This document shows, in pieces, positions 55,513 through 61,488 of a stretch of 64,000 nt of DNA; position 1 is the first letter of the stretch, and each line of letters opens with the position of its first letter. The notes beneath the pieces are model-generated. The model made no database searches and was not told where the DNA came from. It saw only the letters and a program-made list of their open reading frames with translations. The position numbers and the translations under genes were made by a program. The DNA is taken from positions 224,001 to 288,000 of the forward strand of contig CBDCWP010000030.1 in assembly GCA_965223505.1 (NCBI GenBank). Direction: 5' to 3'. Source of the DNA: Planctomycetota bacterium (GTDB lineage Bacteria > Planctomycetota > PLA2 > JAEUHO01).

Positions 55513-57207
55513 CTACTTCTGGATCCACCACTCGTGGACGTTGCGTAGGTACCGCAAGGAGGTCACCTTCACGTTCGTGAACTTCTTGTTGATGCCGACG
55601 AGCCCGCGGGACTCGTACAACATCGTGTAGGGCTGGTCTTTGTACAGGATGTCCTGGAACTCGTGCCAGAGCGGCCGCGCATCCTCGACGTTGGGCAATG
55701 CGCGCCCCTTCTCGATGAGCTCGTCGAGGCGCGGGTTCTTGTAGTCGCAGTAGTTGTAGCCTTTGTTGGCCGCCGACGAGTGCCACGTGGACTTCGGATC
55801 CACCTTCGTGGCGACGCCCCAGCCCGCGACCCAGCTCGTGTACCCGTGCCGCTTGAGCTGCGTCGACATCAGGTTGAAGTCCTTGATCTCGATGTTGACC
55901 TTGACGCCGATCTCGGCCAAGTCCGACTGCGCAAACTCGGCGATCTGCTTCCGCACGTTGTTGCCCACGTTGGTGACCATCGTGAAGATGAGCGGCTTCC
56001 CGTCCTTGGCGTAGATTCCGTCCGCGTTCTTCTTCCAGCCGGCCTCCTGAAGCAGCTCCTCGGCCTTGTCCGGATCGTACTCGTAGGGTTCGAGGTCCTT
56101 CTTCGACGCCCAGAACGAGCTGATGATGTTCGGACCCGCGACCTTGGCGTACCCGTAGAAGACCGTGTCGATGATATTCTCGCGGTCGATGGCGTAGGTC
56201 ATCGCCTGCCGCACGCGGTAGTCGTCGAATGGGAAGGTCGTGCAGTTCCAGCCGATGTATCCGAAGACACGTGACATGTGGGTGTAGAGCTCCAGGTGCT
56301 CGGTCTTGCCGACGCGCGCGACGTCCTTCGGCAGGACGCTGTTCATCACGTCGACGTCGCCGCCGATCAGCGACGTGAACATGGCGCCCATGTCGCCGAA
56401 GATGCGGAAGACGACCTTGTCGAGATACGGCTTGGGCGCGTCCCAGTACCTCTCGTTGCGAACGAGGGTAATTTCCTGGTTGGGCTTGTACTCCCCGAGC
56501 TTGAAGGGGCCGCCTGCGGCGGACGTGGCCTGCTCCAACCAGCTGCCGTACGTCTGCCACTTCGAGAACGGCACCTTGCCGAAGCTGTGCTTCGGGATGA
56601 CCATCGCGTCGTTGATGTCCATCAGCTGGTAGGGATAGTCCTCGGAGTAGCGCACGACGAAATTGCGCCCGTCTTCCGGGTCCACCTCGACGGCGACAAT
56701 GCGGTCCACGATCGAACGCCCGGTCCAGGCGACGTCCTCGTTCTTGCCGGCCTCCACGGAGAAGGCGATGTCGTGTCCGGTGATCTGCGTGCCGTCGGCC
56801 CAGTAGCACTCGCGCAAGCGGAAATGGAGCGACTTCTTGTCGTCGCCACGCTTCGGCAACGCCTCGGCGATGTTGGGTGTGAACGTGGGCGGGCCGTTGT
56901 AGTAGTCGGCCTCTTCGACGTAGAGCCGCGGGAAGACGAGCTCCTGCACCTCCGATGCGGTCAACGAAGACGAGATGTAGGGGTTGATGGCGTCGATGTC
57001 CTGAAGGATCGCGACGATGACCGCGCCGCCCCGGACCGGCTTCACGCCCGCGGGGGGCTTCTTCCACGCCTCGGTGGGGGTCGCGTCGTCCGATCGAACC
57101 TCGTTGGCCAGCGGTTCCCTCTCGGCCGAGGAGACGGGCGCGATCGAGGCGACGACGGCCGCAAGAAGGAAGAGGTGCAAGGTGAACCGAAGTCGAATGG
57201 GCGTCAT
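55513..57207 (-). CDS. ABC substrate-binding protein, family 5 (peptide-binding)
   Basis: GGAVIVAILQD..INP, GPFKLGEY, RNERYW..KPYLDKV, DYRVRQAMTYAIDR, YKNPRLDELIE. Confidence 0.92.
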   Translation of the reverse strand: MTPIRLRFTLHLFLLAAVVASIAPVSSAEREPLANEVRSDDATPTEAWKKPPAGVKPVRGGAVIVAILQDIDAINPYISSSLTASEVQELVFPRLYVEEADYYNGPPTFTPNIAEALPKRGDDKKSLHFRLRECYWADGTQITGHDIAFSVEAGKNEDVAWTGRSIVDRIVAVEVDPEDGRNFVVRYSEDYPYQLMDINDAMVIPKHSFGKVPFSKWQTYGSWLEQATSAAGGPFKLGEYKPNQEITLVRNERYWDAPKPYLDKVVFRIFGDMGAMFTSLIGGDVDVMNSVLPKDVARVGKTEHLELYTHMSRVFGYIGWNCTTFPFDDYRVRQAMTYAIDRENIIDTVFYGYAKVAGPNIISSFWASKKDLEPYEYDPDKAEELLQEAGWKKNADGIYAKDGKPLIFTMVTNVGNNVRKQIAEFAQSDLAEIGVKVNIEIKDFNLMSTQLKRHGYTSWVAGWGVATKVDPKSTWHSSAANKGYNYCDYKNPRLDELIEKGRALPNVEDARPLWHEFQDILYKDQPYTMLYESRGLVGINKKFTNVKVTSLRYLRNVHEWWIQK

Positions 57208-57344
57208 CGAGGCGTGCTCCGTGAGGTCGGGGCCGGTCGGCGCGGCCGGGCCGCTAGCCTAGCGGTTGGGGGCAGGGTGGAAAGGCCTGCCGGGCCGAAA
57301 GCCCGTGGCCCGAGTCAGTCGGCCCTCATCGGTACGCTGACGGC

Positions 57345-58094
57345 ATGAGTGCGCTCTTCCTTGCCAACGTCACCCTCATGGGCGTCGCGGCCAGCGTCGC
57401 CCTGGGCCTTGCGATCATCCTGTTTTGGCGACTGAACCGCCGCAACGAGGCGCTGCGGGCCGACATGGACCGCTTGAAGCGCGAGCACGGCGAGGCGACG
57501 GCCGACCTGCGCTCGCGCATCAGCGAGATCGCGCGGCAGGTGGACTCGGTCCACGAGGAGGTGCCTCCGCTCGTGTCGCGCTTCAAGGAGCACATTCCGG
57601 CGCTCGAGACCCGGGTCGAGGGCGCCGAGAAGCAGCTCTCGGCGGTCGAGCGCCAGCTCAAGGCGGCGGCCGAGGGCGTTCAGACCGCGCGCAAGGAGAC
57701 GGACAAGGTGCAGTCCATCGTGACGAAGCGCGAAGCGTCGCTTTCAGAGCTGCGGGAGGCGATCACGCTCCTGCGCGGGACGGTGGACGAGCATCTCGCG
57801 CGCCGGGGCGCCGACCTCGACGCGGAGGAGGCGCAAGCAGGCGCCGCGACGGCGGTCATCGCCAAACCCGCTGCGACGAAAAAGGCCAAGACGAAGGTCG
57901 TGAGCAAGCCGTCGCCCAAGGCCGCGAAGGCGCCGAAGCAGGCGTCCGCGAAAGGAGCGGCGGAGCCGAAGGCGAAGTCGGCGGCGGCGAGCGGCGAGGA
58001 CGGCGCCGACATCTCGGGCGCGCGTTGGATCTTCGTCGTCATGGCGGCGTTGCTCGGCGCCGCGTTGCTGGCCCAGTGGATCCGGACCCAATAG
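57345..58094 (+). CDS. membrane protein with coiled coil and Lys/Ala-rich linker
   Basis: TM helices at both ends, heptad coiled coil, AK-rich low-complexity segment. Confidence 0.7.
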   Translation: MSALFLANVTLMGVAASVALGLAIILFWRLNRRNEALRADMDRLKREHGEATADLRSRISEIARQVDSVHEEVPPLVSRFKEHIPALETRVEGAEKQLSAVERQLKAAAEGVQTARKETDKVQSIVTKREASLSELREAITLLRGTVDEHLARRGADLDAEEAQAGAATAVIAKPAATKKAKTKVVSKPSPKAAKAPKQASAKGAAEPKAKSAAASGEDGADISGARWIFVVMAALLGAALLAQWIRTQ

Positions 58095-58111
58095 CGCGGA
58101 CGGCGAACACG

Positions 58112-58184
58112 GTAGGGGCAGCCCTTGTGGCTGCCCAACCCGGGACGCCAAGACACGCCGAATTGGGCGACCACAAGGGTCGCC
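58112..58184. repeat. REP doublet, left part, interrupted by the IS110-family element
   Basis: GTAGGGGCAGCCCTTGTGGCTGCCC...TTGGGCGACCACAAGGGTCGCC| ; the missing CCTAC is found at 59546-59550. Confidence 0.9.
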
Positions 58185-58189
58185 GGTTT

Positions 58190-58415
58190 AGGGAATGGCA
58201 AGCCCTTTTCTGTCGGCCGTGCGTCCTTTCCGCGTCGCCAGGGTCGGATCCGTCCACTCGGGTTTTCGAGCTCGCCTATTCGGGCGGCGTCATGAGGGGG
58301 AGTCGGACGCGCCTCTCAATCGCCTACACGAGCTGATGCGCTCAGCGGCCCGCCGGAGTACGCGCCCGTTGGTGTCCGATTCCTGGTTTCGCTTCCTCTC
58401 TCTCAGTGCGTTCGC
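58190..58415 (-). ncRNA. putative bridge/seek RNA of the IS1111-like element
   Basis: ~230-nt non-coding end with stem AGCUCG/CGAGCU enclosing UGUAGG and GCCGCCC (target matches) around an inner hairpin; AAACC and AUCC match the donor junction. Boundaries inferred. Confidence 0.6.
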
Positions 58416-59462
58416 TCAGGCAGCCTGGCCTAGGCACCGACGCAGCGAGAACACCTCGCCACGCGAGAACATCACCCACACGCCCACCAGTAGCCGGCGT
58501 GCAAGCGCCATTCGAACCTTGTTGCGGTGCATGCGCCTGAGCATCGGCTGTGCCCACGCCTTCACCTCTGGGTCGAAGGCCAGCAACCGAACCGCCCATT
58601 GCCCCAGCACCCAACGCAACTCGGCGTTTCCGCGTTTGGTCATGCGGCCGTGGTGCGCTCGATCCGCCGAGGCCGAAACGCGTGGAACGACACCCCCATA
58701 GCTCGAGATCTGTCGAGCACCGCGGAAGCGGGTTGCGTCACCCAACTCAGCTTGAAGCGTCAGAGCCGTCTGGGCTCCCGCCTGTGGCAGATTCCGAACG
58801 ATCCAGCCTGAGACTTCGTCCTGCTCGGCCAACTCGCGGATTCGAGCGGTGAGCTTCTCGATGCGCTCCTGCAGAGCCGCAACGACATCCACCAGCGACT
58901 GCAGCGCCAGATCCTGGTTCTCATCACCCAGTCGCTGCTCGCGAAGCCACTGGATCCCGCGCTTGGTGTACAGCTGCGTCACCGGCGCTCGCAGCAGGTA
59001 CGCGTTGAGCATGCCGCGGATGTGCGCCAGCACGCTGGTTCGATGCTGAACGAGCTGATGCCGAACCCGCAACACCTTGCGCTGGCCGAACTCGGCTTCG
59101 GTGGCGAAGTAGGTCAGTGCGTAGCGGTCCAGGTCGCCAAGGTACAGCCGGCGCGAGATCTCCTGGGCGTCGCGTCGATCCGTCTTCTTGCCCTGCTTCT
59201 TCAGATCGAGCTTCGTGGCGTCCACCACAAGCATCTCCAAACCCGCTTCGCGGCAGGCCAGCACGAACCAGCGGTTGCAGCCCAACGCTTCCACCGCGAA
59301 GCGCCCGCCGCCGTAGGTGCCAAGAAACGCAACCAGCGCCGCGGCCGCCTTTCGATCCGGCAGGCGCCACCGCCGCTCCTCTTCGATCTCGCCCTTCGCA
59401 TCACGGACGCAGATTTGGGCGACACTCTTGTGCAGGTCGATTCCGACGTGGTACGCAGTCAT
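58416..59462 (-). CDS. IS110-family transposase (DEDD RuvC-like + Ser-containing Tnp domain)
   Basis: HVGIDLHK (D), AVEALG (E), KKTDRRDA (DD), GVVPRVSASA (Ser), GRMTKRGNAELRW, MALARRL; GAGGAAGG upstream of the ATG. Confidence 0.95.
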   Translation of the reverse strand: MTAYHVGIDLHKSVAQICVRDAKGEIEEERRWRLPDRKAAAALVAFLGTYGGGRFAVEALGCNRWFVLACREAGLEMLVVDATKLDLKKQGKKTDRRDAQEISRRLYLGDLDRYALTYFATEAEFGQRKVLRVRHQLVQHRTSVLAHIRGMLNAYLLRAPVTQLYTKRGIQWLREQRLGDENQDLALQSLVDVVAALQERIEKLTARIRELAEQDEVSGWIVRNLPQAGAQTALTLQAELGDATRFRGARQISSYGGVVPRVSASADRAHHGRMTKRGNAELRWVLGQWAVRLLAFDPEVKAWAQPMLRRMHRNKVRMALARRLLVGVWVMFSRGEVFSLRRCLGQAA

Positions 59463-59620
59463 GGGGTGGCAGTTCCTTCCTCGGCTGATGCCGTAAACAC
59501 ACTTGGCACGACCGAGGATCAGGGCTGCCACCCCCTATCCCATCCCCTACCTCCGCACCCGCGTTCACCGCCTCGCGGTCCGGGGTGTCGTGCACGATCA
59601 CGTTCACGTGCCGATTCCCC

Positions 59621-59698
59621 GTAGGGGCAGCCCTTGTGGCTGCCCAACCCGTGACGCCAAGACACACGCCATTGGGCGACCACGAGGGTCGCCCCTAC
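59621..59698. repeat. intact REP doublet, near-identical to the interrupted one
   Basis: GTAGGGGCAGCCCTTGTGGCTGCCCAACCCGTGACGCCAAGACACACGCCATTGGGCGACCACGAGGGTCGCCCCTAC. Confidence 0.92.
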
Positions 59699-59741
59699 AA
59701 ACCCGTAGCCGACAGATCACCACCCGTGGGAGATGACGGCG

Positions 59742-60065
59742 CTAGTCGCCCTTCTTGCGTACCAACGTCACGAGGAACGCTGCGTTCTCGGTTCCGGGAT
59801 TGCTCGGACCTGCCGGCTTCGAACCGTCATAGAACGCGAGATCGCCCTTGGTGACCTCCGCGTCGCCTTCGCCGGGCGTGACGCGCACGGCCCCTTCGAG
59901 GCAGTACAGGATTGCCTCGCGCCGGCGATGGGTGAACGGCGTGAGCCCTTGTCCGGGCTTCAGACACACCAGCGTCACGATCGACCGGTCGGTCTCGATG
60001 ATCTTCTTCGTGAACGGACCGTCGTCGCGGAACTCCATCCACTGCTCTACGGAACGCGTGTCCAT
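59742..60065 (-). CDS. cupin-domain protein
   Basis: LVCLKPGQGL.PFTH..EAILYCLEG.V...G....V.KGDL cupin pattern. Confidence 0.8.
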   Translation of the reverse strand: MDTRSVEQWMEFRDDGPFTKKIIETDRSIVTLVCLKPGQGLTPFTHRRREAILYCLEGAVRVTPGEGDAEVTKGDLAFYDGSKPAGPSNPGTENAAFLVTLVRKKGD

Positions 60066-60090
60066 CGGCGCAGTGTACCGTCCTCGTCGC

Positions 60091-61488
60091 CTACCTACCC
60101 GGGTTCGTCATGTGGGTGACGTCGAGCACCTTCTCGAGCTTCGCGGGCGGCAGCAGCTTCTTCTCGGTCGCGATCTCGCGAATCGTACGGCCCGTCTGGT
60201 AGGCCTCCTTGGCGAGCGCGGCCGCCTGGTCGTACCCGATGTGCGGCGCCAACGCCGTTCCCAGCATCAGGCTCTCTTCGACGATCTTCTCGACGCGGTC
60301 GCGATCGACCTCGATGCCCTTGACGCAACGAAGGCGGAAGCCCTCAACGGCGCCGCTCAGCACCTGGATGCCGTCCAACAGCGTGTCGGCCATCAGCGGC
60401 AGCGTGACATTGAGCTCGAACACGCCGGAGGCGCCGGCGGCATTGACCGTCGTCACGTAGCCCTGCACCAGCTGACAGGCCATCAGCAGGCTCTCGCTGA
60501 GCACCGGGTTGACCTTGCCGGGCATGATCGACGAGCCGGGCTGGATCGCGGGCAGCTTCAGCTCGCCGAGGCCGCAGCGCGGACCCGAGCCGAGGTGGCG
60601 GATGTCGTTGGCGACCTTGGTGAGCGCCGCCGCGGCCGAGCCGAGCGCGCCCGCGAAGAACACGCAGGCCTCTCGCCCGCCGAGCTGTTCGAAGAAGTTC
60701 CGCGCGGGACGCAGCTGCATCCCGGTGCGCTTCGACAGGTGCGCGATCGCCTTGGTGTGGAACTTCGGATGGCGGCCGATGCCCGTCCCGACGGCGGTGC
60801 CGCCGAGCGCGACCTCCAGCAGTCCGTCGTACGCGAGCGCGACGCGCTGGCAGGAGTGCGCGACCTGGGCTGCGTAGCCCTGGAACACCTGCCCCATGCG
60901 CACCGGCGTGGCGTCCTGCAGGTGCGTGCGCCCGACCTTCACGACGTCGTCGAACTCCTTCGACTTCTCGAGCAGCGCCACCGCCAGCGAGCTCATCGCG
61001 GGAATGAGCTGTTCCTTCGCCGCGCGCGCGACCGATAGGTGCAAGGCCGTCGGGATGACGTCGTTGCTGGACTGCCCCAGGTTGACGTGGTCGTTCGGGT
61101 GGACCGGCGTCTTCGCGCCGGCCTTCGACCCCAGACCGATGTTGGCGATGTTGCTCAGCACCTCGTTCATGTTCATGTTCGAGGACGTGCCGGAACCCGT
61201 CTGGAAGACGTCGATCGGGAACTCCTCGTCGCGCTTGCCCTTGACGACCTCGTCTGCCGCCTTGCGAATGGCGCTGGCCATGCGCGGCTTGAGCAACTTG
61301 AGCTCCTGATTGGCCTTCGACGCGGCCCACTTGATGTCCGCGAGCGCGTAGAGGAACCGCTTCGGCATCGTGCGGCCCGACACCTTGAAGTTGTCCACCG
61401 CGCGCTGCGTTTGCGCGCCCCACATGCGCTTCGCCGGGACCTTCACGGCCCCCATCGAGTCCTTCTCGGTGCGCATCCGCTGAGCCAT
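60091..61488 (-). CDS. fumC: class II fumarate hydratase
   Basis: RTEKDSMG, WGAQTQRA, FQTGSGTSSNMN, HPNDHVN..QSSND, GRTHLQDATP, GSSIMPGKVNP. Confidence 0.95.
   Translation of the reverse strand: MAQRMRTEKDSMGAVKVPAKRMWGAQTQRAVDNFKVSGRTMPKRFLYALADIKWAASKANQELKLLKPRMASAIRKAADEVVKGKRDEEFPIDVFQTGSGTSSNMNMNEVLSNIANIGLGSKAGAKTPVHPNDHVNLGQSSNDVIPTALHLSVARAAKEQLIPAMSSLAVALLEKSKEFDDVVKVGRTHLQDATPVRMGQVFQGYAAQVAHSCQRVALAYDGLLEVALGGTAVGTGIGRHPKFHTKAIAHLSKRTGMQLRPARNFFEQLGGREACVFFAGALGSAAAALTKVANDIRHLGSGPRCGLGELKLPAIQPGSSIMPGKVNPVLSESLLMACQLVQGYVTTVNAAGASGVFELNVTLPLMADTLLDGIQVLSGAVEGFRLRCVKGIEVDRDRVEKIVEESLMLGTALAPHIGYDQAAALAKEAYQTGRTIREIATEKKLLPPAKLEKVLDVTHMTNPGR

Follow-up and report, generated by a model that had tools for sequence, protein, structure and literature searches.

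A predicted bridge RNA/long seekRNA in the 3' non-coding end of an IS1111-type insertion sequence from a Planctomycetota bacterium

An insertion sequence of the IS1111 type was analyzed in a stretch of 64,000 nucleotides (nt) from a Planctomycetota bacterium (assembly GCA_965223505.1, contig CBDCWP010000030.1, positions 224,001 to 288,000). This whole stretch is referred to as the window, and positions given without a contig or locus name are window positions. The element lies on the minus strand, and its 3' non-coding end very probably encodes, on the transposase strand, a guide RNA of approximately 150 nt (bridge RNA or long seekRNA). Bridge and seek RNAs, which guide DNA insertion and are programmable, form a class described only recently; the best-studied examples are IS621 (IS110 group) and a few IS1111 elements of enterobacteria and pseudomonads. 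An earlier note, made from the sequence alone, had proposed a bridge/seek RNA with target and donor guides in the region 58190-58415. This overall call holds, and the region is the long 3' non-coding end of an IS110/IS1111-family element. The main features of the element are:

58185..59543, minus strand: insertion sequence of IS1111 type, 1359 bp, the stretch common to four genomic copies
58416..59462, minus strand: transposase (recombinase) gene, 348 amino acids, recognized by Pfam domains
59521..59537, minus strand: left subterminal inverted repeat TAGGGGGTGGCAGCCCT, 6 nt inside the left end, from sequence reading and local alignment
58206-58189, minus strand: right partner of the inverted repeat, AGGGCTTGCCATTCCCTA, 4 nt inside the right end, from sequence reading and local alignment

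The ends of the window copy were defined by flank comparison among the four full copies of the host genome (5.15 Mb, 44 contigs), which are approximately 100% identical and are accompanied by one rearranged fragment. The element starts with ATGGGATAGG at 59543 and ends with CCCTAAACC at 58185, and GG adjoins both ends (59545-59544 and 58184-58183). All four copies are inserted at GTAGG|GG|CGA(C/T)CC in the same orientation and with only GG on either side, as is proper to the IS110/IS1111 superfamily. The flanks and ends agree with the target and the circle junction that had been assumed in the earlier note.

The transposase matched DEDD_Tnp_IS110 (PF01548, E 5e-11, residues 6-155) and Transposase_20 (PF02371, E 2.8e-19, residues 222-302), which is the superfamily arrangement of an N-terminal DEDD, RuvC-like domain and a C-terminal Transposase_20 domain. 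The transposases of IS621 and ISCro4 matched weakly and over the C-terminal domain only (E 2e-5). A plasmid search returned only distant relatives with identities of at most 33%, the best named ones being ISHvo10 (33% protein identity) and IS5075/IS4321 (24%). The non-coding parts measure 81 nt upstream of the gene (59543-59463) and 231 nt downstream (58415-58185); the longer part thus lies downstream, as in the IS1111 group. Hallmarks of this group include subterminal inverted repeats and the motif GL-P----S(t)G (PMC11187229; PMC11208160). For the repeats, the reverse-complemented left end was locally aligned to the right end, in the window and in related loci. The subterminal repeat is imperfect and 17-18 bp long, in keeping with the 7-17 bp repeats and short terminal extensions of the IS1111 group. 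The C-terminal motif reads G-V-V-P-R-V-S-A-S-A in the window protein and G-L-V-P-R-V-S-x-S-A in the family consensus; spacing and serine (GxxPxxxxS) fit the IS1111 motif, and the final residue is A, not G.

Relatives were collected at three levels. A scan of a species-genome collection with the protein gave two loci. Among 401 genomes of the same phylum, five had a match, the own genome included (four further ones). A metagenome scan with a seven-protein alignment gave 279 relatives, the best 80 of which were used; approximately 45 of these 80 were 44-64% identical to the query protein, and the remainder 26-31%. The relatives at 44-64% identity share a structured RNA of approximately 150 nt downstream of the gene, and this block carries invariant words such as GAGCUCGA and CGA. 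Their left ends were set at a conserved start NNG[G/A]NAT[A/G][A/G] preceded by a dinucleotide, and their right ends at the end of the inverted repeat plus 4 nt, as in the four copies of the window genome. Eleven end positions were corrected on inspection (nine right ends and the left ends of L045 and L071), and the right end of L063 was excluded.

RNAalifold, applied to the alignment of the relatives, returned an unexpected long-range helix. Thirty-four distinct blocks were aligned with MAFFT (alignment A2, trimmed to A3), and a four-helix structure was fixed, from which the covariance model R1 was built; A4 is the alignment fitted to this model. R1 gave 51 matches at E<=0.01 in 87 sources. 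Forty-five were full-length (approximately 117-138 nt), each downstream of a transposase gene and on the same strand; two were cut by contig ends, and four were weak and short (approximately 80 nt) and came from distant relatives. Exactly one match was found in the window, and four in the own genome, all within the four copies. The four short matches (L090:1411-1491, L094:1722-1803, L099:1615-1696 and L101:1300-1380; E 0.0009-0.007; 27-28% protein identity) cover the target module only; these loci may carry a one-module seekRNA or a diverged donor module.

The predicted RNA and its parts in the window copy are:

58238..58386, minus strand: predicted bridge/seek RNA, approximately 149 nt, closed by the basal stem P0, from folding and relatives
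58386-58382 with 58242-58238 (CCAGG with CCUGG) and 58379-58375 with 58248-58244 (UCGGA with UCCGA), minus strand: basal stem P0
58356..58364 (CGCGUACUC) with 58315-58308 (GAGGCGCG), minus strand: P1, eight pairs, encloses the target module
58330..58343, minus strand: P2, hairpin between the target guides, GAG...CUC, extended by C58340-G58333
58306-58304 (CCG) with 58256-58254 (UGG), minus strand: P3', closes the donor module (58254..58306)
58267..58292, minus strand: P4 hairpin, UGA(C)GCCG 58292-58285 with CGAGCUCG 58274-58267, contains the family-invariant GAGCUCGA
58355-58353, 58322-58320, 58306-58303 and 58260-58258: NCG(R)/CGA motifs (A4 columns 21-23, 75-77, 95-98 and 143-145)

Over all model helices, 94.4% of the cells held standard pairs in A3 and 95.9% in A4. 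With the 3' partners slid by 1-3 columns, pairing dropped to 34-42% (A3) and 34-43% (A4). Changes on both sides were found in 11 of 21 pairs (A3) and 14 of 21 (A4), and the covariation score was reached by none of 500 shuffles on either alignment; A4 favours the structure because it was fitted to the model. Most of the covariation signal is carried by P1, with both-side changes in seven of its eight pairs and 96.7% of cells paired in A3, and in all eight pairs with 97.2% in A4. The other helices gave the following values across A3 and A4: P2, three modelled pairs, two of them with both-side changes, 88-94% of cells paired; P3', three pairs, 98-99%; P4, seven pairs, 92-94%, with two covarying distal pairs. 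Since P3' and the proximal part of P4 are nearly invariant, they show little covariation and say little either way. P0 lies outside R1, and its CCAGG/CCUGG pairing was noted in the window copy; the longest helix that the two flanks can form measured 6.09 bp within a locus versus 5.23 bp across loci (43 distinct loci, 0/20000 permutations). The unconstrained minimum-energy fold of 58386-58238 contains P0, P1, P2, P3' and P4 (-60.8 kcal/mol). The non-coding end holds a conserved structured RNA, as is expected of a bridge RNA or seekRNA.

G.U-type pairs are frequent in A4: of 43 sequences, 41 have U.G at the first P4 pair and 34 have G.U in P3'. These pairs would be C.A on the opposite strand, which argues that the transposase strand is the one read as RNA. 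Both modules are built alike, in the order NCGR, right guide, hairpin, left guide, CGA. NCG(R) opens each module after its closing helix, CGA ends each after the left guide, and both motifs are nearly invariant; loop closure or protein contact is a candidate role. That CGA follows both left guides had been noticed earlier in the window copy and is a family-wide feature.

Three guides and one candidate were assigned:

58344..58351, minus strand: right-target guide GGGCCGCU, complementary to the top strand of GG+CGACCC
58323..58327, minus strand: left-target guide GUAGG, identical to the five bases left of the insertion, followed by the invariant CGA at 58322-58320
58261..58265, minus strand: left-donor guide AAACC, identical to the last five bases of the element, followed by CGA at 58260-58258
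58294..58299, minus strand: tentative candidate for the right-donor guide, CCCCUC, within the donor-loop 5' strand (58303-58293)

The assignment was made by a column scan. For each alignment column, the RNA ending there was compared with DNA segments of its own locus and with those of other loci, and in permutation tests each group of near-identical guides was represented once. The right-target, left-target and left-donor segments each gave a single peak, and the other columns were unremarkable. Complementarity to the right target (second dinucleotide base plus six right-flank bases) peaked at column 32 with 4.94 of 7 positions within loci versus 2.26 across loci; the best 8-nt match was 7.14 versus 3.56 (0/20000 permutations, 29 representatives of 40 loci). 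Identity to the six bases left of the dinucleotide peaked at column 74 (4.23 versus 1.68), and the permutation test of this left-target guide gave 4.23 of 6 versus 1.55 (0/20000, 22 representatives of 36 loci). Identity to the last five bases of the element peaked at column 142 with 4.82 of 5 versus 2.45, over 11 distinct ends. In 44 of 44 loci the right end closes with the 4 nt that precede CGN in the RNA, and the agreement extends to 5 nt in 31 of 44. The left-target guide GUAGG and the left-donor guide AAACC, both of which had been named in the earlier note, are therefore borne out by covariation with the left flank and the right end, respectively.

In the window copy, the right-target guide forms six Watson-Crick pairs and one U.G pair with GG+CGACCC and has one C.A mismatch at C58348. 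The right-target guide (column 32; 58351-58344) stands 5' of the left one (column 74; 58327-58323), which is the order of IS1111-type elements. The strands of the guide-DNA pairing are assigned provisionally, and the left-target guide would pair with the bottom strand.

The earlier note had cautioned that matches of this length permit no more than an inference. Against 5000 dinucleotide-preserving shuffles of the 231-nt end, the matches in the window alone are not beyond chance. The left-target 5-mer occurred in 283 of the 5000 shuffles, both left 5-mers in 119 (AAACC is also present in the right end itself), and a 6/8 match to the reverse complement of GG+CGACCC in 4317. As the matches in the window by themselves are weak, the question was one that only relatives could decide.

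A case of natural retargeting is provided by the closest relative, L042 (64% protein identity). It retains GUAGG together with a GTAGG left flank, its right guide CACGAUGCC fits its right flank GG+CATCGTG, and its donor guide AGACC equals its right end AGACC. In the loci L032, L073 and L074, the target is a near-perfect palindrome, TTGCGCC GG CGCAA, so that the left and right target guides are almost the same word on two strands.

The target of the window copy belongs to a repeat that resembles repetitive extragenic palindromic (REP) sequences:

58110..58184, minus strand: right half of the interrupted REP-like target, GG CGACCCTTGTGGTCGCC...GGGCAGCCACAAGGGCTGCCCCTAC
59550-59544, minus strand: left half of the interrupted REP-like target, GTAGG GG
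59700-59620: intact copy of the REP-like repeat, 75 bp upstream

Two hairpins, GGCGACC..GGTCGCC and GGGCAGCC..GGCTGCCC, make up the repeat, which has GTAGGGG and CCCCTAC as its borders, and the insertion site is one of its arms. In all four copies the right flank reads CGA(C/T)CC(T/A)TGTGGTCGCC, and the sequences upstream of GTAGGGG differ. GTAGGGG occurs at 579 sites in the genome and is followed by CAGCCC at 130 of them, by CGACCC at 92 and by CGGCCC at four. The CGACCC and CAGCCC sites stem from the two arms of the repeat. CGGCCC would fit the right-target guide perfectly; the mismatch to the guide lies at right-flank base 3 in CGACCC and at base 2 in CAGCCC. All four insertions are at CGA(C/T)CC, although both abundant site variants hold one guide mismatch, which is a hint, from four insertion events, that the position of the mismatch may matter for target choice. 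For genome annotation, these findings account for the four-copy repeat and for its preference for one REP-like arm.

The donor side is less evenly resolved. The 5' strand of the donor module (58303-58293) is C-rich, and CCCCUC (58299-58294) could pair with G+ATGGG of the circle junction except for a mismatch at left-end base 2. CCCCUC is tentatively proposed as the right-donor guide. Two other candidates were tried and rejected. NNCC before the 3' GA was compared by eye with left end and right flank, and no consistent match emerged. In some loci a pairing of the donor loop with the left inverted repeat looked suggestive by eye, but the column scan was without a clear peak for it.

An RNA with target and donor guides was weighed against three other explanations. 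In the first, only the 5' target module would act as a guide (a short seekRNA), the 3' module would serve as scaffold or in processing, and the protein would read the ends via the inverted repeats. An 82-nt short seekRNA of ISEc11 with target matches only sufficed for movement, and the role of the ISEc11 long form is not established (PMC11187229). Four distant relatives (L090, L094, L099 and L101) match the model over the target module only, and the right-donor guide is weak. Against these points stand the like build of both modules and the 4 nt before the second CGA, which match the last bases of the right end in every one of the 44 loci; such agreement over 11 distinct ends is hard to explain unless the right end is read. 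This explanation is considered improbable.

The second explanation is the layout drawn in the earlier note, which is like that of IS621: UGUAGG (5' side) and GCCGCC(C) (3' side) stand in a loop closed by the stem AGCUCG/CGAGCU, and AAACC and AUCC follow as donor guides. Every quoted string is present on the minus strand (UGUAGG 58328-58323, GCCGCCC 58288-58282, AAACC, AUCC and AGCUCG/CGAGCU). Reverse-complemented, GCCGCC reads GGCGGC, which differs by one base from the target GGCGAC, and AUCC corresponds to GG+AT at the junction; the left-before-right order of guides is that of IS621 (PMC11208160). The relatives nevertheless make this layout very unlikely. The closing stem (58334-58329/58274-58269) had 63.9% of cells paired versus 62.9% in shuffles (127 of 500 as high) and no covariation; it is specific to the window copy and its closest relative. 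The proposed right-target guide (58282-58288) falls within the covarying hairpin P4 (5' strand and loop), without right-flank covariation at its columns, and a far better right-target guide is found 5' of the left one. The proposed right-donor guide AUCC (58249-58246) is part of UCCGA in the basal stem P0 and shows no covariation with the left end; AUCC or AACC is retained even in relatives with a left end that begins AA or AC. The covariation across homologs that the earlier note had named as a check was thus found for its left-target and left-donor guides and was absent for its right-target and right-donor guides.

A third explanation, that the conserved end acts as DNA with transposase binding sites and the flank matches are a by-product of repeat insertion, could draw on the role in end recognition ascribed to IS1111 subterminal inverted repeats (PMC11187229) and on the lack of a demonstrated transcript of the window element, but is equally unlikely, since compensatory changes maintain the helices including strand-specific G.U pairs, the guides vary with the flanks of each relative at fixed structural positions even where targets are not one kind of repeat, and the conserved block, at 50-150 nt inside the right end, is separate from the inverted repeat.

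Several results weigh against a guide RNA with target and donor modules. The right-target guide of the window copy matches at 6 of 8 positions, at the low end of the family, and has its C.A mismatch with all four of its own sites. Folding of the 149-nt RNA was only mildly better than that of shuffles (z -1.38), and folding of the whole 236-nt end was no better than that of shuffles (z +0.41). An Rfam scan of 57000-61000 with E up to 1 found no relevant family and only a chance match of 26 nt to a viral pseudoknot, and a search of sequencing runs for the sequence listed no RNA run. The ends of the metagenomic relatives were set by a motif rule and not by comparison with empty sites, which is a weakness. 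For the right-donor candidate, a scan with the dinucleotide and the first six left-end bases gave column 109 as the best column with a small margin, 4.93 of 8 within loci versus 4.48 across loci; over scan and permutation test together the values were 4.72-4.93 versus 4.36-4.48 (218/20000 permutations). The left terminus is conserved (14 distinct forms), so that the permutation test has low power. Among 39 loci, pairing with this candidate was found at the second dinucleotide base in 30, and at left-end bases 1 to 5 in 26, 5, 37, 34 and 23, respectively. Left-end base 2 is therefore unpaired in 34 of 39 loci, and C faces it nearly everywhere, whichever base it is. With these points included, a guide RNA of approximately 150 nt, encoded on the transposase strand, is still regarded as very probable.

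The predicted RNA was compared with described systems. Bridge RNAs have been predicted in the right end of 93% of IS1111 elements (PMC11208160). The seekRNAs of the IS1111 elements ISEc11, ISPa11, ISKpn4 and ISPst6 (Siddiquee et al. 2024, PMC11187229) likewise originate from the long non-coding region that follows the transposase gene, place the segment that would pair with the top strand 5' of the one for the bottom strand, and have a long form of 145-170 nt versus approximately 149 nt here; their elements share subterminal inverted repeats, a circle-junction promoter and repeat targets with the window element. These likenesses are drawn from the published descriptions. The ISPa11 target begins with GTAGG, as does the window target (review table, PMC13604230). 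In ISEc11 the two target matches overlap, whereas the left guide of the window element ends before the dinucleotide. A donor-reading segment is clear in the window family and is not described for IS1111 seekRNAs in the accessible part of PMC11187229.

With the bridge RNA of IS621 and the IS110 group (Durrant et al. 2024, PMC11208160; Hiraizumi et al. 2024; PMC13626964), the window element shares the plan of one RNA with target and donor modules, a left guide identical to the top strand and a complementary right guide, a conserved crossover dinucleotide, and a recombinase of the DEDD and serine type that is alike over the C-terminal domain only. The two differ in the position of the RNA (3' end here, 5' end in IS621), in the order of guides within each loop, which is reversed (PMC11208160), in the dinucleotide (GG versus CT), and in the hairpin that the window element has between the two guides of each loop. 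ISPpu9 of Pseudomonas putida (PMC12288879) is likewise a member of the IS110 family; it forms circles, and a fixed dinucleotide within REP sequences is its insertion site. It belongs, however, to the IS110 group, is without inverted repeats and has its bridge RNA upstream; its downstream small RNA Ssr9 is dispensable for transposition. For these reasons ISPpu9 is no model for the window RNA. In kind, the RNA proposed here is ordinary and very well resolved, from a clade far from the studied elements (named relatives 24-33% identical).

Transcription of the RNA may depend on the circular form of the element. Two hexamers were considered:

58196..58201, minus strand: TTGCCA, -35-like hexamer in the right end
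59539-59534, minus strand: GATAGG, -10-like hexamer in the left end

In the circle, TTGCCA would lie 17 nt upstream of GATAGG. At the same positions, 27 of 38 related loci have TTGAC[A/T/G], and 26 of 38 have a hexamer starting with TATAG or TATAA. By its sequence, the circle junction would form a promoter, as is known for ISEc11 and IS621 (PMC11187229; PMC12288879). Such a promoter might also account for the strong conservation of the left terminus. A scan of the integrated element gave no sigma-70-like promoter sites and two terminator-like sites inside the gene, at chance level.

The following mechanism is proposed. The RNA would be processed out of the 3' portion of the transposase transcript, which would probably start at the junction promoter. 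It would be closed by the basal stem and present two similar modules, each with a helix that encloses a right guide, a hairpin, a left guide and CGA. Bound to the DEDD/serine recombinase, it would join the circular junction of right end, GG and left end with the REP-like GTAGG|GG|CGACCC by site-specific exchange, as in IS621 and ISEc11.

The GG dinucleotide may be treated asymmetrically. In IS621, the CT core takes part in all four pairings (PMC11208160; PMC13626964). In the window family, by contrast, the left guides end before the dinucleotide and continue with C-G-A where G-G would be needed; left-flank identity falls from 4.23 to 2.29 one column further on. Only right guides cover the dinucleotide, and the right-target guide does so. 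Both junctions are available for 36 relatives, of which 24 have GG beside either end. Nine (L045, L046, L048, L055, L060, L061, L065, L080 and L083) have GG beside the left end and another dinucleotide (TG, CG, GA or GT) beside the right end; the reverse, GG beside the right end only, was found in none of the 36. The remaining three show GT/GC, CG/CG and TG/TA. In most of the nine asymmetric loci, the right-target guide fits at least the second base of the right-side dinucleotide, and in L065 and L083 it fits both bases. Some of the loci are not independent of one another, and a rule was used to set their ends. If the dinucleotide were a staggered overlap, both outcomes would be expected after replication, an expectation derived from the top-strand cleavage described for IS621 (PMC13626964). 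The asymmetry suggests that GG travels with the left end. It is conceivable, if rather unlikely, that GG is not a shared, exchanged core; the element would then begin with GG, and the crossover would lie 5' of it. If this were true, such recombinases would need no fixed target core, and a constraint on programmable bridge recombination would be lifted.

The natural variation of this clade resolves three of the four guides at base resolution and yields a covariance model, an example of natural retargeting (the window element versus L042) and a hint that the crossover dinucleotide is treated asymmetrically. It also provides evidence that an IS1111-type RNA reads the right end of its own element.

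Contigs of four DNA runs were compared with the region 57700-60000. No empty site and no circle junction was found there, and the contigs break at repeats; the one listed joint and the extra letters are joins between repeats. Within the genome, the second copy on contig C44 (L004:1510-1530) has a single G-to-A change in the left subterminal inverted repeat (TAGGAGG versus TAGGGGG) and is otherwise identical. The rearranged fragment on contig C40 (226626-227215; L005 and L006) is broken and partly inverted and is without the RNA module; it consists of the first approximately 400 bp of the element and an internal piece of 188 bp on opposite strands.

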